Shown here: positions 6,831 to 57,911 of the stretch, in pieces
Numbering within the stretch: position 1 is the stretch's first letter
Layout of the letters: each line of letters begins with the position of its first letter
Assembly (NCBI GenBank): GCA_963699205.1
Contig: OY969421.1
Location: 1,624,427 to 1,688,426, forward strand
DNA: 64,000 bases
Reading direction: 5' to 3'
Source of the DNA: Vulcanimicrobiota bacterium
Lineage (GTDB): Bacteria > Vulcanimicrobiota > Vulcanimicrobiia > Vulcanimicrobiales > Vulcanimicrobiaceae
Notes under the pieces: model-generated
What the model was told of the DNA's origin: nothing
Seen by the model: only the letters and a program-made list of their open reading frames with translations
Database searches by the model: none
Position numbers and translations under genes: made by a program

Positions 6831-7646
6831 TTATCGTTGGCAGCGACGACACCACCACGTTCCACGTTGCCCTAGTACGCTTCGCAAGATGCGACTCGAA
6901 ACGCATCGGCGACACGGCTGACCGTGCCGGCCGTAGACCGCGAGGTCGTTTTGGAAACTTCCGCGCCGTCCTTGCGCATCCACGTAGTCGTCCACGCTCG
7001 TCCCACGGCGTGCAATCGCGCGCTGCAAAACGTCGACAATGGCGCCATGTAAACGCGTAATTGCGGGCCTTGTCAATGCGCGGGCGGACCGGCTCGGACG
7101 GATCCGCGCCTGCCAGAGCGCTTCGCATGCATAAATGTTCCCTATGCCGGCGATGCGCCGCTGATCGAGCAGCAGAACCTTGACGGGCGTCGTCCGCCCC
7201 GCCAGCATACCCGCAAAGGCGCGCTGTGTAAAGTCTGGGGACAGCGGCTCGACGCCAAGCGATGCGTCCCAGTCGTTCTCCCGCTCGACCACACGCATGC
7301 GGCCGAATGTCCGTACGTCCGAGAACCGTAACTCGGTCCCGTCGGCGAGATGAAGGACCAGGTGGGTCGCCGGATCTTCGGGGGCACCCTGCCGGGCCAC
7401 GACCAGCCGGCCCGTCATTCGCAGACTCGTGACCATCGAACGGCCCGAACCCAGCTCGATCACCACGTACTTGCCGCGCCGACGAATGCCGACCACGCCT
7501 TCCCCAGCGACGGCCCGTTCAAATGGTACGTTGGGCGGCGAGCCGACGATCCGGCGTAAACGCACGCTCGCGCCCTCGATCGTGGTCCCGACGAGACGCG
7601 ATCGCAAGCCGCGCACGATCGTCTCGACTTCGGGCAGTTCCGGCAT
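6831..7646 (-). CDS. mutM: Formamidopyrimidine-DNA glycosylase
   Basis: N-terminal MPELPEVET catalytic motif. C-terminal zinc finger CRRC...CRRC. Confidence 0.9.
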   Translation of the reverse strand: MPELPEVETIVRGLRSRLVGTTIEGASVRLRRIVGSPPNVPFERAVAGEGVVGIRRRGKYVVIELGSGRSMVTSLRMTGRLVVARQGAPEDPATHLVLHLADGTELRFSDVRTFGRMRVVERENDWDASLGVEPLSPDFTQRAFAGMLAGRTTPVKVLLLDQRRIAGIGNIYACEALWQARIRPSRSARALTRPAITRLHGAIVDVLQRAIARRGTSVDDYVDAQGRRGSFQNDLAVYGRHGQPCRRCVSSRILRSVLGQRGTWWCRRCQR

Positions 7647-7652
7647 TGCGCG

Positions 7653-8093
7653 CTAGGGCTGGGCGCTTGGCAACGACGGCAGGCTCAAGCGAATGCCTGC
7701 GACGATGCCGTCGCGGGCGGCCTCGCCTGCCGAAAGCTCGATGACGTACTTTCCTTCCCCCGCGATGCGCGGAATGAGCTCATCGCGAATGTTTGGATCG
7801 ACCGTTGGAACGTCGGCCGCGACGCGACGTACCACGCCATCGGACGCGATGAACAACATGTCTAGCGAGACGAGGGTGTTCTTCATCCAAAACGAAACCG
7901 GCGCGTCGCTCGCAAAGACGAAGAGCATACCGGTATGTGGAGCGAGGCTCGATCGGTTCATCAATCCGCGCTCGCGCTGCGCGGGCGTAGACGCCACCTC
8001 CAGCGTAAGCGTCGCGCGGGGAGCCTGCACCACGATGGTAGGAAGCAGCGCCGCCAAGATCAGCGTTCCGACGCTAAACACGTTCCAACGCAT
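7653..8093 (-). CDS. DUF192 family protein with signal peptide
   Basis: GLMNRSSLAPHTGMLFVF...PVSFWMKNTLVSLDMLFI pattern typical of DUF192/COG1430. N-terminal hydrophobic signal sequence. Confidence 0.7.
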   Translation of the reverse strand: MRWNVFSVGTLILAALLPTIVVQAPRATLTLEVASTPAQRERGLMNRSSLAPHTGMLFVFASDAPVSFWMKNTLVSLDMLFIASDGVVRRVAADVPTVDPNIRDELIPRIAGEGKYVIELSAGEAARDGIVAGIRLSLPSLPSAQP

Positions 8094-10695
8094 CCGCTGC
8101 GATCGGTTCGACGTCGTACCAGTTGTGACCCGATTTCAGCGTGACCTCCAGCGGCACGGTAAGACCGATCGCGTCTTCCATGTGCTCGCGTACGAGCGCG
8201 GCGACGTCGTGCAATGCAGACTTTTTCACTTCAAAAATCAGCTCGTCGTGGATTTGCAGGAGCATAGCGGCGTCGTCGCCGCGAGCTCCGAGCGCTCGAT
8301 CGATGCGCACCATGGCGAGTTTCATGAGATCGGCGGCACTGCCTTGCAGCGGCGCGTTTGTGGCTTCGCGTTCGGCCGCGGCACGCAACAGGTAGTTCCC
8401 CGACCGCAATGCCGGCATGTACCGGCGACGCCCCAGGATGGTCGCGACATATCCGGTTTCACGAGCCTCGTGGAGGGTGGCATCGATCCATTCGCGCACT
8501 CGAGGAAACCGATCGAAGTACGCCGCCGTCATCGCCTTCGCCTCAGACCGGCCGATCTCGAGCCGCGCCGCCAGCCCGAAATCCGACATACCGTACAAGA
8601 GACCAAAGTTTACGATCTTGGCCATGCGTCGCTGCTCGCGATCGACGCGGACCTCCGGGGGGACGCTGAAGATTTGACGTGCGGTGAAATCGTGAATGTC
8701 CGTTTGTTCCTCGAAGGCTCGGCGCATCGCTTCGTCGCCCGAAAGATGCGCCATCAGCCGTAGTTCGATTTGACTGTAGTCGGCGGCCAATAGCACGTAT
8801 TCGTCGTCGCGGGCGACGAACGCGCGGCGAATCCGGCGTCCAAGTTCCCCGCGTACCGGAATGTTTTGCAAATTGGGATTCGTCGAGGAAAGCCTGCCGG
8901 TTGCCGTAGCGGTCTGTTTGAACTCCGTTCGCAATCGTCCGTCGCGCTGGTCGACCAAACGCGGTATGACGTCAACGTAGGTGTTTTTGAGTTTGGTGAC
9001 TTCGCGCCATTCGAGCACGAGCGCGCAAATCGGATACTCGCGCGCGAGACTTTGGAGCACCTCGACCCCCGTCGCCCATCCGGTTTTCGTTTTCTTGGAC
9101 CCGGGGATTTCCAGTTTCCCAAACAGCACGTTGCCGAGTTGCTGCGGAGAACCGATATTGAATTCTTCGCCGGCAAAGTCGTAAATTTGCCGTTGCAGCC
9201 GCATGACGGCACGGTCTATTTCGCCGCCGACGACGTCCAACTCACTGGGATCGATGGTTACGCCGGTGGTTTCCATTTTCGCCAGGACGGGCGACAGCGG
9301 CACTTCCACTCGTTCATACAGCGACAACTGTTCTCTGTTCTCGAGCTCGCTGCGCGTCTTTGCGGTCAGTTGCAGCGTCGCATCGGCGTGGGCGGCGGCT
9401 TCGGGGGGAAGGTGCACTCCCAAAAACTGGACTGCGGCATCTTCGATGTCGGCGAAGCCTTGTGCGGGATCGAGAAGGTGGGCCGCGACCATGGCATCGT
9501 CCGTAAACCTCGCACGCCCGATTTCATGTCTTTCGAACAAACGCAACATTCGCTTGGTGTCGTACGCCGCCAAGGACCTTGCGCCGCCGACCAGTTCGGC
9601 GAGCGCGGCGCGAACCGGATCCGACGAAAGCGCCGCGCGATTGAAACTGAGCCCTTCACCGGCACTCGCACTCACCCCGATGGCATCGCCGAGCGACGCG
9701 ATCGCGACGCGTTCCGCCACGGAGAGTCTTTTCAGATCTTCTGCGAGCGCGATGAACTCGGGCGGATCGGTCGACACGACGTAGCTTCGATATGTACCGC
9801 TCAGCAGCGCGTCGGGCTGTAAGAGCGGAACATCTTTGGGCGGCGCAAGTTTGCTCAACAAAGTCTTGAACTCGAGTTCGCTGTAGAGCCGGTAGAGTTC
9901 GCCGTCGCCGGGCGTCGCGTAGCGGACGCTTTCCAAATCCAACGTAACCGGAAGATCGCGGCGAACGATCGAGACCGCGCGGCATAGGCAGGCCTGCTCG
10001 CCGTATTCTCGGATGAGACGCTCCAGTTTTGCATTCCCCGCGAGCGACGGATCCGCAACCAGCGCGTCAAGGGAACCGGCGCCTTGCAAGAGGCGGCTGG
10101 CCGTCTTTTCCCCGACGCCGGGAATGCCCGGCAGATTGTCGGATGGATCGCCCTTGAGCCCGCGGTAATCCGGGAGTTGCGATGGCTCCAAGCCGAAGCG
10201 CTCACGCACCGCCTCGGTATCGTAGCGACCCAGCTCCGTAATGCCACGGCGCGTGGTAAGCACGGTGGTACGCTCGTTGACGATCTGTAACAGATCGAGG
10301 TCGCCCGTGACGACGATCGTCGCCTCTCCTGATTCCTCGGCCTGACGCGCGAGCGTTGCGATAACGTCGTCCGCTTCCTGGCCCTCCACTTCGACGATTG
10401 GAATGCGATGCGTCTCGAGCACCCGGCGCACGATCGCGAATTGACTGCGCAAGTCGTCGGGCATGGTGCGCCGCTGCGCTTTGTATTGGGCAAACTGAGA
10501 AAGGCGATCGGCGGGCATGCCTTTGTCGAACGCGGCAATGATGTGGGTGGGCTTCTCGTCGGCAATGAGTTTGTTGAGCATCATCGTGAAGCCGTAAACC
10601 GCGTTAATCGGCGCGCCTTTGCTCGTGTTCAGGGGCGGTAAAGCAAAAAAGGCTCGGTAAACCAAGCCATAGGTATCCAACAACATCAACGCCAC
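8074..10695 (-). CDS. polA: DNA polymerase I
   Basis: 873 aa. 5'-nuclease N-terminus (LLDTYGLVYRAFFAL). Pol A motifs DYSQIELR, RRMAKIVNFGLLYG, QIHDELIFE. Confidence 0.95.
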   Translation of the reverse strand: MALMLLDTYGLVYRAFFALPPLNTSKGAPINAVYGFTMMLNKLIADEKPTHIIAAFDKGMPADRLSQFAQYKAQRRTMPDDLRSQFAIVRRVLETHRIPIVEVEGQEADDVIATLARQAEESGEATIVVTGDLDLLQIVNERTTVLTTRRGITELGRYDTEAVRERFGLEPSQLPDYRGLKGDPSDNLPGIPGVGEKTASRLLQGAGSLDALVADPSLAGNAKLERLIREYGEQACLCRAVSIVRRDLPVTLDLESVRYATPGDGELYRLYSELEFKTLLSKLAPPKDVPLLQPDALLSGTYRSYVVSTDPPEFIALAEDLKRLSVAERVAIASLGDAIGVSASAGEGLSFNRAALSSDPVRAALAELVGGARSLAAYDTKRMLRLFERHEIGRARFTDDAMVAAHLLDPAQGFADIEDAAVQFLGVHLPPEAAAHADATLQLTAKTRSELENREQLSLYERVEVPLSPVLAKMETTGVTIDPSELDVVGGEIDRAVMRLQRQIYDFAGEEFNIGSPQQLGNVLFGKLEIPGSKKTKTGWATGVEVLQSLAREYPICALVLEWREVTKLKNTYVDVIPRLVDQRDGRLRTEFKQTATATGRLSSTNPNLQNIPVRGELGRRIRRAFVARDDEYVLLAADYSQIELRLMAHLSGDEAMRRAFEEQTDIHDFTARQIFSVPPEVRVDREQRRMAKIVNFGLLYGMSDFGLAARLEIGRSEAKAMTAAYFDRFPRVREWIDATLHEARETGYVATILGRRRYMPALRSGNYLLRAAAEREATNAPLQGSAADLMKLAMVRIDRALGARGDDAAMLLQIHDELIFEVKKSALHDVAALVREHMEDAIGLTVPLEVTLKSGHNWYDVEPIAADALERV

Positions 10696-10708
10696 GGCAA
10701 GAAAGTTC

Positions 10709-13057
10709 CTATCGAACCAGAATCGTTGAGGAACCCGCGGCGACGCTGCCGTCGTCGCAGATTGCCAAAATGGAAAGCGTGTATTCTCCCTTCGTTTGCG
10801 GCAGCGTGATCGGTATCGCGTCCGTGCTGGTACGAACCGCAGTCCACGTCAACGACTCCGTATACGCCTCCGGCAGCGAAACGTCGATGGGCGGTTGACT
10901 CCGGCGCACGAAGCCGAGCATCGCAGCGTGATCTCCCGTCGAGTTGACCCCGGGATGCCACGTCGGCGTTGCAGAGGCGCTGTTTTGCGTCGTCGCCGAT
11001 CCGATGGACAAGAGCGCGGGAGCGGAGCCGAACATCGCGCTCCCGGATGGCGCAACTCGACTGATGCGCACGACCGTGGTCGCGCGTTGGTTTGTGCCGT
11101 CGAGGCCGATCGTGGCGGCGGCGCCGGCCGCGAACTCCGAGCGCCCTAACGCGACGCGGGAAGTCTCCGGGCGCCCCGCGGCAGACAGTGCGACCGGCAC
11201 GGTATTCCATTCGATCGCGCCGTTGCGGACGACTGCGGTCCCTATGCGAAGATCGCCGGCGGCATTGAACGCGCGCAAACGAGCGACCGCCTCTCCCCGG
11301 GCGACCGGAACGACTTGAACTTGCGTACCTACCGCGCTCTCGAAACTGATAAAAGCCTTACCTTGAGCGCCCGATGCATCGGCGCGGATCGTCATCGTCT
11401 CGTTCGCTCGATACGCGTCCTTATCGAGCGCGATTCGAACGTTGGAACTGCGCCCATCGGTGGATCCCGACGGTGCCGCAGGATCGACCTGAACCTGTGC
11501 CGCGTCCATCGCGCGGCCGCCGTGGTCGAGCGTGGCCAACACCAGATTCGTCCCGAGTTGCGGCGAGCTAAAGTTTGCGCGCGCGCGTCCGCCCGAATCC
11601 AGCATAATGGTTTGCTGCGCGACGGTGGTTCCGTGCACCAACTGCACGGTAACGGGAGCGTTGGCCAACGGGCGCCCATCGCGACCGACCGCTTCGACGT
11701 CAAACGCAATCGGCGTGCCGACGCCCTGCTCGGCGCGGTCGACCTGCACGCGCAAAATCGCATCTGCGGTTGGGACGATCGCGCGCGTATCGGCGGTGGC
11801 ACCCTGCGCTTCCACGTGCACGCCATAGGTAGAAGCAAGACCGTCGGTCGGCCGCGGCACGAGAACGGTTGCGTCGCCGCGGTCATCGGTGCGAATAGAG
11901 GTTTCGAACCAACGCGTCGTTCCCCACGCGAGCGTTTGCGGTGAATCCGAAAGGTCGATGTGCGGCGAGCGAAAGACGCTCAGTTGCACCACGGTACCCG
12001 CGTGAGAAGCATGTACCCGCAGGGGGAGCTCTTCACGATAGTCGCACGTCGTTGTGCAATTGGCGCCGACCTCGAGCGAAAGGCCGCCGGCATTGGCATC
12101 AACGTGAATCGTCGTGCCGCCCACGCCGCCTGCGGTTTGGGCCAAGACCGCATAGTCGCCCGCGGGCGCCTCGGCCGGGATCCTCAACGAGGCGACGAAC
12201 GCACCGGCTTCATCGAGCGAGGCTCGCCATTGCGCAATCGTTCGCGCGCCCGCATGAACCGTGATGAGCGCGCTTCCGCCGGATGGGCGAAGAATGCCGC
12301 GCACTCGCGTACGTGCGAAACCCGCGACGTGGACCGCCTCGCCGGCGTGGACCACCGCGGAATCGGTGCGAACGCCCACGATCGTGGTCGGTAGCGGCGG
12401 TTGCGGCAACAAACTCAAAAAGGCGTAACTGCTTCCCCATTGCGCCAACGCGAAGACGGGATGCGCCGCGCGATTCCAGGAAACGACTCCATCGCCGTTG
12501 GTCAACATCGTTACGAACGCGCGATTAACGACGAACTCCACGCGCATGCGCGCGATCGGCATGCCGGTGCCCAAATCGGTGCCGTAAAGGATCAGGCTAT
12601 TTGGGGTTCCTTTCGCGAGAATACCGACGCGCGAGCGATTGATCCAGACTTGCTCGCCGACGTTGCCGCGCCGCGCTTCCACCACGAAAAAACCTTCTCG
12701 CGTACCGAGCGGCAGCGTAACTTCATTGGATTGGAACTGATATCCGCCGGGAGGATCGAACGTGAACGAAAGCAAGGCGCGCCGACCGTTCGTTCCGATC
12801 GGTCGGGACCGCGAATTCGATCCTGCTGAAAGGACTTCGCTTGGATCGGCCTGATAAATCGCAAATGCGACGGGCGCACTCGTATAGGTGTCCAAGCGAA
12901 CCGTAGCCGGCTTCCACGGCACGCTCGTATCGCCGGCAAACAGCGCGAAGTACGCATCGAGGCGGTGAAGATCGACGATCGGGCGTTCTGCATGCACAGG
13001 AGCGATACTCATTGCGAGAATCGCAGCCGCCGCGGCAAAAAAACGCGCGAGGTACAT
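10709..13057 (-). CDS. Large secreted protein with repeated beta-sandwich (Ig/macroglobulin-like) character; function unknown
   Basis: MYLARFFAAAAAILAMSIAPVHA signal peptide at the internal Met (13057). The Arg-rich 113-aa extension in the track is rejected. Val/Thr/Ala/Gly-rich repeats. No catalytic motif recognised. Confidence 0.6.
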   Translation of the reverse strand: MYLARFFAAAAAILAMSIAPVHAERPIVDLHRLDAYFALFAGDTSVPWKPATVRLDTYTSAPVAFAIYQADPSEVLSAGSNSRSRPIGTNGRRALLSFTFDPPGGYQFQSNEVTLPLGTREGFFVVEARRGNVGEQVWINRSRVGILAKGTPNSLILYGTDLGTGMPIARMRVEFVVNRAFVTMLTNGDGVVSWNRAAHPVFALAQWGSSYAFLSLLPQPPLPTTIVGVRTDSAVVHAGEAVHVAGFARTRVRGILRPSGGSALITVHAGARTIAQWRASLDEAGAFVASLRIPAEAPAGDYAVLAQTAGGVGGTTIHVDANAGGLSLEVGANCTTTCDYREELPLRVHASHAGTVVQLSVFRSPHIDLSDSPQTLAWGTTRWFETSIRTDDRGDATVLVPRPTDGLASTYGVHVEAQGATADTRAIVPTADAILRVQVDRAEQGVGTPIAFDVEAVGRDGRPLANAPVTVQLVHGTTVAQQTIMLDSGGRARANFSSPQLGTNLVLATLDHGGRAMDAAQVQVDPAAPSGSTDGRSSNVRIALDKDAYRANETMTIRADASGAQGKAFISFESAVGTQVQVVPVARGEAVARLRAFNAAGDLRIGTAVVRNGAIEWNTVPVALSAAGRPETSRVALGRSEFAAGAAATIGLDGTNQRATTVVRISRVAPSGSAMFGSAPALLSIGSATTQNSASATPTWHPGVNSTGDHAAMLGFVRRSQPPIDVSLPEAYTESLTWTAVRTSTDAIPITLPQTKGEYTLSILAICDDGSVAAGSSTILVR

Positions 13058-54023: not shown

Positions 54024-54084
54024 TACCTGCACCCACACCCGGAATGGTCCTAGCGTAGCGCACGCAGCGCCGGCGCGCCCTAGA

Positions 54085-54092
54085 TAAAGCGC
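54085..54092. repeat. Target-site duplication, left copy (TAAAGCGC)
   Basis: Identical 8-mer TAAAGCGC immediately outside both inverted repeats (54085-54092 and 57858-57865). Confidence 0.8.
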
Positions 54093-54115
54093 GGGCATTA
54101 TATACTTGGCAAAAC
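54093..54115. repeat. Terminal inverted repeat (distal to the transposase)
   Basis: GGGCATTATATACTTGGCAAAAC. The reverse complement of 57835-57857 is GGGCATTATATACTTGACAAAAC. Confidence 0.85.
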
Positions 54116-54165
54116 GGAATACCTACCGTATAGTGGCCGGGTGACAGGGCGACGAATCTTCAGGC

Positions 54166-54480
54166 ATGGGACCGAAAGGCTTCTGGGTCGCACTTGCAAT
54201 CACCGTGGCGTACCTAATCGCTCGGCCTCATCTTGGCTCTGTCTGGTACGTTGAAGCGTTTGGCTTGACGGCTAGCACTCCTGAACCGCCAACTAATCCG
54301 CATGGGACGGGCTCCCTCCTTGAGGGCCTTCGTCCCCTTGATTCTCCCCCAATGGGGCCACCTGCTGCTGTCTTCCCTGACCGGCAATCTTGTTTTAGCG
54401 CGCTGGCGGCCTATGAACGAACCACGGGCGTTACGGGAGCTTACTGCGCTACCCGAACGGCCCTGCTGTGGGGCTGGTAG
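54166..54480 (+). CDS. Hypothetical small protein (cargo ORF, weak)
   Basis: 104 aa with one N-terminal hydrophobic helix (FWVALAITVAYLIA), then Pro/Gly/Thr-rich. No convincing SD. Confidence 0.3.
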   Translation: MGPKGFWVALAITVAYLIARPHLGSVWYVEAFGLTASTPEPPTNPHGTGSLLEGLRPLDSPPMGPPAAVFPDRQSCFSALAAYERTTGVTGAYCATRTALLWGW

Positions 54481-54504
54481 TTTTGGCGCTTGCCGTCAAC
54501 GGGG

Positions 54505-55533
54505 TTACTCGTATTCCGAGATAGTTGGCGGAGTTTCATTATGGCGCTGCGTTTCTTCGGTTGAAACTTGAGTCTTAAGAGGAAGCTTGGGCTGCGAGAT
54601 CACACCCCGGACTTTCACGATCTCGTAGGAAGGGTTTGATTCGCCATCCTTGGTGCGTCTTACGATAACCCTGGCCTCGACTCGGAGGAAATCCCCGCCG
54701 CGAATAATCTTCTCGCCTCGGTCAACCGATTTTACAAAATCCGCGTCCAACATCGCGGCGCGAATGTGAGCTTTGCCTTCCCAGAACCGCCAAGTTTTTA
54801 AGTCGGGGTCGAACGTGATTTGGCGCACCTGCCATGTCCGCGGCTGTATGTCGTCTGAGAGTACGTCGCCTTCGTCTGGTGTGATCTCGGTGCCCTCGGG
54901 TAGATTGACGGTAAATCCGCTAAGGTCGTCTCGCCTTATCTGGTTCGTTTTTCGCTGACCTTTTTTAAATCGAAGCTCCTCTATGCCGTCGCGCCGCAAC
55001 GGATTTGTAAGCGTTTCAAGGTCGTTCCGAACGTCGGCGCGCTGGTACATTTCCCAGGCTCCAGAGTCAACAAAAAGCGTGGCGTTGTTGTAGACCACCC
55101 TGGTTGCCGCCTCGTCTTTTTCAATCAGTGACGGCTTCCCGTGTCCGATACGCTTGGCGATTCCAATAAGCCCGAGCACGCCTAAGCCGCCCCCGATTTT
55201 TATAACGTCGTCGCCAAGAACGCCGAGGGTATCCAAAATACTCTTGAGGTCCTTAATTTGCGTCGTGCCTAAGAGAGACCTGATTTGCTCGATAGTATTC
55301 TGGATAAGGTGAATGTCAATTCCGAATGAGCCGCGTTTAAGATCGGCGCGCACCCGAACAGAAACTGCCGCCCGCTCACCGTTAAGCGTTTGGTTCGCCT
55401 CTGTGCAAAGACGGCTGAAGGCCAGCAGGGAAGGAGCGAGGTCCGTTATATCCATCTCGCCATTCTCAACCGCTATGCCATTAAATTCGAGGGTGAACTC
55501 CTCGGAACTAGACATCTGCCACGGCGCTTTCAT
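54505..55533 (-). CDS. Hypothetical protein, no recognisable family (largest cargo ORF)
   Basis: 342-aa ORF with balanced, non-Arg-rich composition. Central Gly/hydrophobic stretch VIKIGGGLGVLGLIGIAKRI. Beta-rich C-terminal half. Alternative start at Met7 (55515). Confidence 0.65.
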   Translation of the reverse strand: MKAPWQMSSSEEFTLEFNGIAVENGEMDITDLAPSLLAFSRLCTEANQTLNGERAAVSVRVRADLKRGSFGIDIHLIQNTIEQIRSLLGTTQIKDLKSILDTLGVLGDDVIKIGGGLGVLGLIGIAKRIGHGKPSLIEKDEAATRVVYNNATLFVDSGAWEMYQRADVRNDLETLTNPLRRDGIEELRFKKGQRKTNQIRRDDLSGFTVNLPEGTEITPDEGDVLSDDIQPRTWQVRQITFDPDLKTWRFWEGKAHIRAAMLDADFVKSVDRGEKIIRGGDFLRVEARVIVRRTKDGESNPSYEIVKVRGVISQPKLPLKTQVSTEETQRHNETPPTISEYE

Positions 55534-55552
55534 CCTTGGATACCCCTAACCC

Positions 55553-55738
55553 ATGGGACATGGTAAAATAGCTGCGATGGGCACGAAGATTCGAACGGCC
55601 GAGGAGGTTGAGGCCCCCGAAACCGCTTTTGAGCGGTTCAAGAAGGTGGTCATCGCGCTAGCGGTGACACCGAAGAACGGCAAGCCTGTATCCACGACGA
55701 AACGCCGGAAGAAGCCTAGCTCGGCTCGGGGCCGATAG
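55553..55738 (+). CDS. Hypothetical 61-aa protein (cargo ORF, weak)
   Basis: MGHGKIAAMGTKIRTAEEVEAPETAFERFKKVVIALAVTPKNGKPVSTTKRRKKPSSARGR. No SD. Its 3' end overlaps the convergent 60-aa ORF by 23 nt. Confidence 0.25.
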   Translation: MGHGKIAAMGTKIRTAEEVEAPETAFERFKKVVIALAVTPKNGKPVSTTKRRKKPSSARGR

Positions 55739-55898
55739 CCCCCTTTTCGGGGCGCTCCATTATTTCGCGGTGCTTGCGCTCCGCTTCCCAATAGGCTTCG
55801 ATAGCGGCTTCTTTCGTTGGGCCATGAACGGCCCATCCGTCGCCGTGGGCCGCCCACCCGTACTTAATCGGAGTAACGATCGGGTATTGCTGCTGCAT
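55716..55898 (-). CDS. Hypothetical 60-aa protein, HicB/UPF0150-like feel (cargo ORF)
   Basis: MQQQYPIVTPIKYGWAAHGDGWAVHGPTKEAAIEAYWEAERKHREIMERP... The ATG at 55898 is preceded by AAGGGG. Confidence 0.4.
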   Translation of the reverse strand: MQQQYPIVTPIKYGWAAHGDGWAVHGPTKEAAIEAYWEAERKHREIMERPEKGAIGPEPS

Positions 55899-55976
55899 AC
55901 CCCTTAACGATAGCCAAAGCACAAGGGCGCATAAAATACAGTATCAGAATAGAAGTGCTCGGACTCCCGCTAGCCC

Positions 55977-56005
55977 TTGACTTTTGTTTTGGTATTCCGT
56001 AGGAT
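55977..56005 (+). promoter_or_regulatory. Sigma-70-like promoter for the 56040-56687 cargo gene
   Basis: TTGACT (55977-55982), 17-nt spacer, TAGGAT (56000-56005). Lies 35 nt upstream of the ATG at 56040. Confidence 0.4.
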
Positions 56006-56039
56006 ATGTTCCGTGTTAGAACCGCTCGAACAAGATTTT

Positions 56040-56687
56040 ATGCCCTACGGTCCGGGTGCCCGGACGGTCGCCGTGATCAACCGAATCCATGAGGGAAAAT
56101 CCGGCAGCCCGCTCACCCCGGCTAAGTTGGCCGCTCTCGGTGTAGCCGAAGGGAACGCCGTTCGTGTGCAGCGTTCGCTTTATTTTTTGGGGCTTATTGA
56201 CGAGGAGGGGAACCTCACCGAGGGTGCTACGCGGCTACGGAAGGCGGCGAGCGGCGAGTATGCCGAGGCCCTCGCGGAGATCATTCGCGATAAATACGCC
56301 CCCATCATCGAAATGTACGACCCGGCAACGGCGACCGGATTAGATCTGAACAATGCGTTCAGGCAGTACGAGCCTGCCGGACAAAAAGACAATATGATTC
56401 GGCTATACACGGCTCTTTGTCAAGAGGCTGGGTTAATGCCGACGACTGAGAAAAAGCGTGGTCGTCCGCTTGGGTCAAAAGCCAGCGATGGGTCGGCGAA
56501 GCTGCAAAAAAACCGGGAGCAGGCGCGTACCAATGGCACAACTCACCAAAACCATCCTCCGCCGGCACCCTCAATAGTGAACCTTCTCGTATCGAAATTT
56601 CCGGACTTTAATCCAGAGTGGGAGTCCGCCGTCCAAGAACGATGGTTTCAGGCGTTCTCGCGGCTTCAGGAGGAGCTTAAGAAATAA
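56040..56687 (+). CDS. Hypothetical protein with wHTH-like N-terminus (DUF5343-like by recollection) and a basic linker (cargo ORF)
   Basis: MPYGPGARTVAVINRIHEGKSGSPLTPAKLAALGVAEGNAVRVQRSLYFLGLIDEEGNLTEG... A central KKRGRPLGSK AT-hook-like patch. C-terminal helical segment. Confidence 0.6.
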   Translation: MPYGPGARTVAVINRIHEGKSGSPLTPAKLAALGVAEGNAVRVQRSLYFLGLIDEEGNLTEGATRLRKAASGEYAEALAEIIRDKYAPIIEMYDPATATGLDLNNAFRQYEPAGQKDNMIRLYTALCQEAGLMPTTEKKRGRPLGSKASDGSAKLQKNREQARTNGTTHQNHPPPAPSIVNLLVSKFPDFNPEWESAVQERWFQAFSRLQEELKK

Positions 56688-56846
56688 AGCAGCTTTGATC
56701 GCGACAGAAGCCGCCCCCGGTCGTAAAGGGGAGAGCGGCTCCGTGGTAAGTGCCGGTATCGTCGTCCGGCGGCTACCTTGGCGGTCAAGAGGTACGGGGG
56801 TCGTTTGCGGTAAGAGGCGACGGCCCTCGATCTTTTCTTAGCGGCT

Positions 56847-57809
56847 TTAGCGTTTCCCCGTCAAGGTCTTATACGTTAGCCGCTTGCCCTCGGCTAGCTT
56901 CGCGGCTTCAACGAAACGCGGCCCGTCTGTATTCTCGCGCTCATTGAACCGATAGACTTGCTCCTCGACGTATCGTTGCAGATGCTTCGGGCGAGGAGCA
57001 ATATACGTTCCGCGAATGGTGCGCTTGAATACGCTGAAGAACGATTCGATGGAATTCGTGTGAACGTGGCCCTCCACATAAGAATAAGCGTGATCTATCA
57101 CCCGATGGATAAAGTCCCGCTCTAGTCCTTGGTACCAGCGTCCGCCGTCAGTATGAATCTCCGAACCGCGCTTCACGCGGCGGCGAATCTCGGGCTGTAG
57201 CTCGCGGCCCTCTACGAAGGGCGCAACCCATGCTCGCACCTTACCCTTGCGCTCTTTGGACGAGCGCTGCACAATGCCCATGACGGCGGCCTTATCGCCT
57301 GAAAGACGACCTCGCATATAGCTCGACGGCGACCCTTCAAGCCGCGCACGCCGCTTGCGGTTCATTAGCTGGACCGAACCGCCGACGTAGGTTTCATCGG
57401 CCTCGACGGGGCCTTCCAGGGGTTCTTCGGACTCGTCACGCATGGCTTCGCGAATCCGATGGAGCATGAACCAGGCCGTCTTTTGCGTGACGCCAAGCGC
57501 CCGCGCAAGCTCGCAGGATGACGTTCCGTTACGGGTCGCCGTCAGCAACCAGATCGCTGGCAACCACTTGGAAAACGAGATCGGGCTATCTTCAAAGATC
57601 GTGCCCGTCTTGGCCGTAAACTGCTGGCGGCATTCCTTGCATGACCAGCGCCGATACTTGGGCATATACGCGACCTTGGCATTCCCACAATGCGGACAAC
57701 CCGCACCATTCGGCCAACGCAGGCCCGCGAAAAAGTCATGCGCTACCTGGGCGTCAGCGAAATACGCGACGGCTTCGGTAAGAGTGCGCGGGACTTGTAA
57801 CTTGCCCAT
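56847..57809 (-). CDS. IS1595 family transposase (ISXO2-like DDE)
   Basis: N-terminal zinc ribbon CPHCGNAKVAYMPKYRRWSCKECRQQFTAKTGTIFEDS. HTH segment SSCELARALGVTQKTAWFMLHRIREAM. DDE domain with ADETYVGG ... IHTDGGRWY ... HTNSIESFFSVFKR. Confidence 0.9.
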   Translation of the reverse strand: MGKLQVPRTLTEAVAYFADAQVAHDFFAGLRWPNGAGCPHCGNAKVAYMPKYRRWSCKECRQQFTAKTGTIFEDSPISFSKWLPAIWLLTATRNGTSSCELARALGVTQKTAWFMLHRIREAMRDESEEPLEGPVEADETYVGGSVQLMNRKRRARLEGSPSSYMRGRLSGDKAAVMGIVQRSSKERKGKVRAWVAPFVEGRELQPEIRRRVKRGSEIHTDGGRWYQGLERDFIHRVIDHAYSYVEGHVHTNSIESFFSVFKRTIRGTYIAPRPKHLQRYVEEQVYRFNERENTDGPRFVEAAKLAEGKRLTYKTLTGKR

Positions 57810-57834
57810 ACCTCTACTTTACCAGGCAAAGGTA

Positions 57835-57857
57835 GTTTTGTCAAGTATATAATGCCC
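57835..57857. repeat. Terminal inverted repeat (transposase-proximal)
   Basis: GTTTTGTCAAGTATATAATGCCC, the reverse complement of the 54093-54115 repeat with one mismatch. Confidence 0.85.
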
Positions 57858-57865
57858 TAAAGCGC
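57858..57865. repeat. Target-site duplication, right copy (TAAAGCGC)
   Basis: Identical to 54085-54092 and directly abuts the inverted repeat. Confidence 0.8.
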
Positions 57866-57911
57866 ATTAGACCGTTCGCCAGTGCCGATTGGTCGTTCCG
57901 AGGGTAACGTT

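Follow-up and report, generated by a model that had tools for sequence, protein, structure and literature searches.

The stretch of DNA considered here (from here: the window) comprises 64,000 nucleotides of a Vulcanimicrobiota bacterium (GenBank assembly GCA_963699205.1, contig OY969421.1, positions 1,624,427 to 1,688,426). Between two convergent genes, recR and a gene for a MOSC-domain protein, the window contains a segment of 3765 bp (positions 54093-57857) that disrupts no host gene. The segment has inverted repeats (IRs) at its ends and an intact IS1595-type transposase gene close to one of them, and its cargo of about 2.7 kb contains at least three credible genes. We report that this segment is, with high confidence, one intact transporter insertion sequence (tIS) of the IS1595 family, and that related elements reside at the same position of the recR-MOSC spacer in other, divergent lineages.

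The definition of IS1595 tIS is reportedly the one given by Siguier, Gagnevin and Chandler in 2009 and used by ISfinder/TnCentral. Two families of insertion sequences (IS), IS1595 and IS66, are described as having such tIS, and according to TnCentral tIS are confined to these (10.1101/2021.05.26.445724). Direct repeats of 8 bp have been reported for the IS1595 family (PMC12561309).

Anatomy and insertion of the 3765-bp element

The only transposase gene of the window occupies positions 56847-57809 on the minus strand, the extent that had been proposed in a sequence-only reading of this DNA. Its 320-aa product matches the Pfam family DDE_Tnp_IS1595 (PF12762; 5.5e-36, 124 bits against a cut-off of 27), in its N-terminal part Zn_ribbon_IS1595 (PF12760; 6.6e-11, 42 bits, cut-off 25.4) and the NCBIfam model NF033547 (4e-58, 197 bits, cut-off 75). 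The family-invariant residues D138, D221, E255 and K262 are kept, with the spacings E255-x6-K262 and E283-x3-R287. Together with the short terminal IRs and the 8-bp duplication described below, this zinc-ribbon DDE transposase makes the element a well-formed member of an IS family already known for passenger genes, and in itself an ordinary one. Because the nearest transposase is only 78% identical, the element is, judged by its transposase sequence, a new IS; plasmid-borne relatives are less than 40% identical and annotated merely as "IS1595 family transposase". Neither the transposase nor the neighboring MOSC protein was recorded in an exact-sequence look-up. Members of the ISNwi1 subgroup presumably have ends reading GGnnATTAT, a DDEK signature plus ER4, and lengths of 1.75-4.75 kb with passengers; the present element may belong to this subgroup.

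The ends of the element are 23-bp IRs that pair at 22 of 23 positions, on which direct reading of the sequence and a repeat search agree. The cargo-side IR at 54093-54115 on the plus strand reads GGGCATTATATACTTGGCAAAAC, while the transposase-side IR at 57835-57857 lies on the minus strand, and its reverse complement is GGGCATTATATACTTGACAAAAC, identical to that of four sister elements (L089, L090, L092 and L096; see below). The ends of the element read GGGCATTAT. A pattern search for the IR that allowed up to three mismatches returned only these two matches in the window, and 0 of 100 shuffled sequences gave a match. In particular, no IR-like copy was detected near the stop codon of the transposase gene at this threshold, in agreement with the sequence-only reading. 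Directly outside the IRs stands the 8-mer TAAAGCGC, once at 54085-54092 and once at 57858-57865, forming a perfect target-site duplication; the repeats and the duplication confirm what the sequence-only reading had described. A second transposase, another IS copy or a further copy of the IR or the cargo is absent from the window. Hence one IS, with neither a second IS copy nor an internal IR, holds the passenger genes between its own IRs, which is the arrangement of a tIS, and the two IS copies that would bracket the cargo of a composite transposon are not present. The interior had been described as visibly more AT-rich than the flanking genes; this is true, but the difference amounts to about 4 percentage points only (56.3% G+C in the element versus ~60.5% in the flanks).

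The sequence-only reading had taken the whole 3765 bp as the mobile unit, and it had named cargo genes standing at this locus in relatives, with neither IRs nor transposase, as an observation that would speak against this. The closest relatives found via RecR, L099 (93.5% RecR identity) and L100 (91.5%; GCA_019236755.1), have recR-MOSC spacings of 134 and 143 bp, respectively, and contain no cargo, IRs or transposase. In alignments, both possess one 8-mer between conserved flanks, reading GGTCTAAT-ATCGATTA-GTTAGGGC in L099 and GGTCTAGT-GCGAATTG-GTTAGGGC in L100. The window without the IS and one duplicate reads GGTCTAAT-GCGCTTTA-TCTAGGGC, and its reconstructed empty site is ...GGCGCGCCCTAGATAAAGCGCATTAGACCGTTCG.... 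The closest relatives are empty, with one 8-mer at the position of the duplication, and the 3765-bp unit is hence genuinely inserted.

Short-read contigs of run ERR11594400 (Logan) end precisely at the borders of the element. Contig L001 is 100% identical to window positions 57492-54093, runs unbroken from within the transposase gene across the cargo and ends at 54093, where the element begins. Contig L002 is identical to positions 60095-57858 and ends at 57858, the first base past the element. From the behavior of the assembler we infer that these breaks fit an IS end that meets several different flanks in the assembly graph. Contig L001 also breaks at 57492, within the transposase gene, which suggests a second, diverging transposase variant in sample ERR11594400.

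The insertion had furthermore been called recent and probably still mobile. Recency is supported because the duplication is perfect, the IRs match at 22 of 23 positions, the open reading frames (ORFs) are intact and contigs break at both IS ends. It is a relative statement, however: the insertion took place after separation from relatives that share only ~78% identity in the flanking DNA. The element may well be capable of movement at present. Some observations weigh against an intact and mobile tIS. There is no second copy in the window, and clustering at 90% identity returned one sequence from one contig. The duplicated 8-mer fits the target consensus of the clade, CWAATTWG (see below), at just 3 of 8 positions, and transposition is deduced from sequence comparison instead of being observed directly.

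Passenger genes of the element and its relatives

Transposases 44-60% identical to that of the window were collected from 80 genome loci (L003-L082), and both ends of the element were located in 56 of these via the IR core ATATACTTGAC. The four sister elements L089, L090, L092 and L096 are closer, with transposases ~70-80% identical and nearly identical IRs. Hosts of the clade belong to Acidobacteriota, Verrucomicrobiota, Eremiobacterota/Vulcanimicrobiota, Gemmatimonadota and other groups. The IR is conserved throughout as GGyAAT(A/T)ATATACTTGAC..., with a -35-like TTGAC in its core. The 56 distant elements measure 1.7-5.4 kb, of which 0.7-4.4 kb past the transposase gene are cargo, and none is about 1 kb in size. 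Wherever two ends could be identified, in 61 related elements, the cargo is held inside the IRs, and 43 of these elements show perfect 8-bp duplications, matching the duplication length that the sequence-only reading had given for the family. As a further observation that would speak against its reading, it had named other copies with an IR closer to the transposase gene; the second IR always lies past the cargo, in the four sisters as in the 56 distant elements.

The cargo of these relatives is variable. Among the 56 distant elements it comprises DUF3800 proteins (a 14-member BLAST cluster), a HEPN-containing family (9), RelA_SpoT/PDC-S33 proteins (4) and SocA/Panacea antitoxins (3), as well as DNA methylases, AbiU/AIPR, HNH, Mrr and Fic proteins; these figures are counts and not a statistical enrichment. 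Two of the sisters, L092 and L096, carry DUF3800 proteins, and the L090 element holds a complete PD-Lambda-5 system (protein A of 439 aa, 4e-115; protein B, a methyltransferase of 304 aa, 2e-101). Altogether, the cargo of the element and its relatives is dominated by defense- or conflict-type genes. A literature search returned no paper that ties IS1595 to defense cargo. Two further loci, L091 and L093, are listed together with L090 for sister tIS carrying PD-Lambda-5. In one clade element, a second IS1595-type transposase ORF is located within the cargo (L073, 7725-8771), which may be a nested insertion.

In the window, the first cargo gene (54505-55533, minus strand) encodes a LAPAL-motif protein of 342 aa that is a candidate single-gene phage defense. 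It matches the PADLOC family PDC-S42 at 1.1e-62 over residues 9-310, thus at full length, as well as NCBIfam NF053583 (2.4e-51, 174.9 bits, cut-off 60) and phrog_3243 (5e-44), and the DLAPSLL motif is present. A profile search for PDC-S42/LAPAL proteins yielded 5331 representative clusters, the top matches being nearly all ~300 aa long. The AlphaFold2 model of the protein (pLDDT 86.7) gave no global match to the PDB; its best local matches were OB-fold proteins (SSB, RPA, the N-terminal domain of LysRS and HIN) at E ~1e-3 and TM ~0.5 on the target.

A function of this cargo other than defense appears unlikely to us, but it deserves to be weighed. The LAPAL protein could be a phage-derived structural protein, or the cargo could consist of purely selfish addiction or stabilization genes that serve the element only. 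NF053583 is named "LAPAL motif-containing putative phage structural protein", and the family occurs in phage genomes, as shown by phrog_3243. PDC-S42 is a computational defense candidate for which the literature search gave no mention and for which we found no experimental evidence. The lack of a global PDB match also counts against the defense assignment, and a large part of the clade's cargo resembles toxin-antitoxin genes (RelA_SpoT, SocA, HEPN, Fic). Nevertheless, the genomic context of the LAPAL homologs argues for an accessory or defense role over a structural one. In phage A2 (ORF19; L106, 5004-5906) and in Listeria phage vB_LmoS_188 (ORF27; L107, 4989-5876), the homologous gene lies between endolysin and integrase, outside the structural module, and in vB_LmoS_188 it also adjoins a putative superinfection-immunity gene. 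In temperate phages, this is the usual place of lysogenic-conversion ("moron") genes, so that the position of both homologs does not fit the NCBIfam name. In bacteria, Fic, BglII/MT-A70 and DndB genes accompany a 58%-identical homolog on an island bounded by an integrase, and a 29%-identical one has a restriction-modification pair of type III, ParDE and Mrr as its neighbors. The search of a viral fold library with the LAPAL model likewise returned no capsid or tail folds and nothing convincing, the top match being a DUF6575 protein at TM 0.33. Moreover, a sister tIS carries the complete PD-Lambda-5 system. The PDC-S42/NF053583/phrog_3243 gene of the window rides on an IS, as opposed to a place in an integrase-bounded island or a prophage.

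The second cargo gene (56040-56687, plus strand; 215 aa from the ATG at 56040, within an ORF open from 55977) encodes a DUF5343 protein (Pfam; 4.2e-10, 40.5 bits, cut-off 27). It also has a weak match to PADLOC PDC-M34A (2.3e-6). The PDC-M34 system requires A and B together, and no other ORF of the element matches a PDC-M34 partner. A sequence search of solved structures found no match for the DUF5343 or the LAPAL protein, and DUF5343 had zero occurrences in the literature search. We considered that LAPAL and DUF5343 form a conserved pair; this was rejected, as the neighbors of LAPAL homologs are unrelated to DUF5343 and neither gene occurs in the 80 related IS loci. A further idea, that the recurrent ~300-aa cargo genes of the relatives are distant LAPAL homologs, was dropped when these proved to be DUF3800 and HEPN families. 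To our knowledge, the combination of PDC-S42 and DUF5343 has not been reported as cargo before.

One small ORF connects the cargo regions of the closest elements. The window and the sisters L089, L090, L092 and L096 share the transposase region, at 72-81% DNA identity, and ~60-135 nt at the far end, while the rest of their cargo is unrelated except for a segment with this ORF. This ORF, the sole cargo-region gene common to all sisters, encodes a basic-tailed protein of ~50 aa that contains the motif AFERFKxAVxxIAxxPK. In the window it lies at 55553-55738 on the plus strand (53-61 aa, probable start ATG 55577, motif AFERFKxxVxxxxxxPK); the copies of the sisters are all on the minus strand (L089, 10037-10219; L092, 10115-10294; L096, 3143-3298; L090, 11254-11406). 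A profile of the protein found copies within the cargo of 20 of the 61 elements (E<1e-3), mostly 50-290 nt beyond the stop codon of the transposase gene and on either strand, and the only match outside cargo was in the transposase gene of L027. There is no Pfam family for it. Judging from this distribution, the small ORF is probably a semi-conserved part of the element backbone. We know of no earlier report of such a recurrent small ORF, although no search was made for one.

The insertion site between recR and the MOSC gene

Leaving aside L090, the three sister elements with sequenced flanks on both sides, L089, L092 and L096, occupy exactly the 8-mer of the recR-MOSC spacer that is orthologous to the insertion site in the window. 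Their duplications are TGAGTTTG in L089 (7945-7952/11758-11765), CAGATTTC in L092 (7945-7952/11690-11697), where the element has the opposite orientation, and CACTCTTG in L096 (868-875/4102-4109). The hosts are divergent, with RecR proteins 78-84% and MOSC proteins 52-66% identical.

The sequences on both sides of the 8-mer are conserved. On the recR side, the window has ATTAGACC at 57866-57873, the reverse complement of GGTCTAAT, which is kept in empty and occupied sites. On the MOSC side, CCCTAGA at 54078-54084, the reverse complement of TCTAGGG, aligns with nTTAGGGC or nCTAGGGC in the two empty sites and in two of the three other occupied ones, and L089 reads AGTAGCG. The target motif can be written as GGTCTAAT-N8-nYTAGGGC. 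As the conserved flanks are present in the empty sites too, they are host sequence. They read CTAAT...TTAG and resemble the two halves of the palindromic 8-mer consensus C-W-A-A-T-T-W-G, which was derived from 44 elements with perfect duplications. Neither the window nor the empty sites contain a known RNA or tRNA at the target. The possibility that the motif is a dispersed repeat was discarded, since it is not repeated elsewhere.

Residence at one orthologous position in four divergent lineages might also stem from a single ancestral insertion. The element would then be an old, vertically inherited and possibly domesticated resident of the spacer, whose cargo turned over and which was inverted in situ in L092, conceivably by recombination between the IRs; the transposase divergence (74-81% identity) does resemble that of RecR (78-84%). 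We regard this as improbable. The 8-mer pair is identical within each genome and different between genomes (GCGCTTTA in the window, followed by those of L089, L092 and L096 given above), and copies 3.7 kb apart cannot co-mutate. Furthermore, the two closest relatives of the window are empty with a single 8-mer, the cargo of the four elements is unrelated save for the small ORF, and the sister L090 is found at a different locus. Because the 8-mer pairs match within but differ between genomes and the nearest relatives are empty, independent insertions at a preferred site are far more likely than one ancestral insertion, and the use of the same site in four lineages points to an insertion hotspot. 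That merely the ~1-kb transposase part moves, so that the repeat at 54093 would be unrelated or a solo end and the 2.7 kb would belong to the host or to some other island, is hardly credible: most described IS1595 members are single-gene elements of 0.7-1.1 kb, such as ISApl4 with 712 bp (PMC12561309), but here no IR-like sequence with up to three mismatches is found near the transposase stop, the perfect 8-bp duplication brackets all 3765 bp, the empty sites of the relatives are also free of the cargo, the second IR lies beyond the cargo in every related element, and a Logan contig continues from within the transposase gene through the cargo to 54093.

The preference of the inserted tIS for this hotspot is not exclusive. 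The L090 element (7953-11486, 3534 bp) is located elsewhere, downstream of a sigma-70 gene, at the consensus-like CTAATTTG, which forms its duplication. Given this different site, and with no integrase or Tns-like genes on the element of the window, the latter differs from site-specific integrative elements of the integrase or Tn7 type, which have a dedicated recombinase or target-selector protein and a fixed attachment site.

Further observations concern the spacer itself. In L089, recR and the IS are separated by an additional ~790 bp (7159-7952) that include a 67-aa ORF and are absent in the other lineages; this DNA may be a further insertion at the same hotspot. In a related lineage (L101, also L102-L105), recR and the MOSC gene overlap by 6 bp (L101, 7604-7609), the spacer and the motif are absent, and each of the 16 contigs that were read is unoccupied. 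We are not aware of an earlier report on the repeated use of one chromosomal site by such elements, for which no search was made.

Comparison with known systems and proposed mechanism

With the described IS1595 tIS, the element shares the single zinc-ribbon DDE transposase, short IRs, the 8-bp duplication and passengers within the IRs, a second IS copy being absent; it differs in being a new sequence. A second parallel exists to the IR-bracketed restriction-modification units with 8-bp duplications described by Furuta, Abe and Kobayashi in 2010 (PMC2853133). In both cases defense genes lie between short IRs and an 8-bp duplication matches the empty site of a relative, and the unit from Neisseria includes a COG3677-type transposase-like gene (PMC2853133). 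However, those units carry restriction-modification genes and their transposase is seemingly inactivated (PMC2853133), whereas the transposase is intact here and the cargo consists of a candidate single-gene system and genes without assigned function.

Tn7-like and other transposons, known for defense cargo and fixed attachment sites, offer a third comparison. Variable defense-type cargo on one transposition module and the reoccupation of one conserved chromosomal site are common to both. In contrast to them, the present element relies on a single small DDE transposase; TnsABCD/TniQ, CRISPR targeting genes and recombinases of the tyrosine or serine type are absent, and site preference is not exclusive, as illustrated by L090.

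We tentatively propose, in the knowledge that this broader view may well prove wrong, that a widespread clade of IS1595 tIS in soil bacteria is a minimal, one-transposase vehicle for phage-defense and toxin-type genes. Its marks would be the IR core ATATACTTGAC, the target CWAATTWG and, in many members, the hitherto undescribed small basic protein, and one subgroup would repeatedly target the recR-MOSC motif as a miniature, IS-serviced defense hotspot. In soil phyla that have received little study, such as Eremiobacterota and Acidobacteriota, defense genes may thus travel on very small elements with a single transposase. With four divergent lineages hit independently at the same 8 bp, target choice by an IS1595-type transposase can be tested on a concrete case. 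For PDC-S42/LAPAL, a family of >5000 clusters with no solved structure, the element offers a compact mobile context for cloning. The putative defense cargo, the small ORF and the repeated use of the site lift the element above a routine IS call.

In the mechanism that we consider, the transposase would bind the two 23-bp IRs and insert the whole unit, cargo included, by an 8-bp staggered cut, which would yield the TAAAGCGC duplication. The conserved IR core ATACTTGAC would provide a -35-like box (TTGACA or TTGGCA) at each end, so that one end probably drives expression of the transposase gene, while transcription into the element may begin at the other. The LAPAL/PDC-S42 protein would act as a single-gene anti-phage or abortive-infection effector with a putative OB-like beta-barrel, and the cargo would confer a benefit such as phage resistance, or stabilize the element.

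Two minor ORFs complete the cargo region. One of 60 aa (55716-55898, minus strand), unique to this element, is located upstream of the PDC-S42 gene and shares its strand; it was called by the Logan gene caller and has gene-like codon-position G+C, but no homolog in the sister elements and no family match. The other, of 104 aa (54166-54480, plus strand), is doubtful as a gene on its codon-position composition, since its third-position G+C (0.56) is below that of the second position (0.61), unlike in real genes here. It had no family matches and was not called by the Logan gene caller, and is more likely non-coding subterminal DNA.

Three promoter-like sites were recognized as consensus matches. 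The one in front of the transposase gene (57816-57844, minus strand) combines TTGACA within the IR, a spacing of 17 nt and TAAAGT. At the opposite end, an inward-facing site (54106-54134, plus strand) has its -35 box TTGGCA within the IR, followed after 17 nt by TATAGT. The third, TTGACT and TAGGAT separated by 17 nt (55977-56005, plus strand), is located ahead of the DUF5343 gene.

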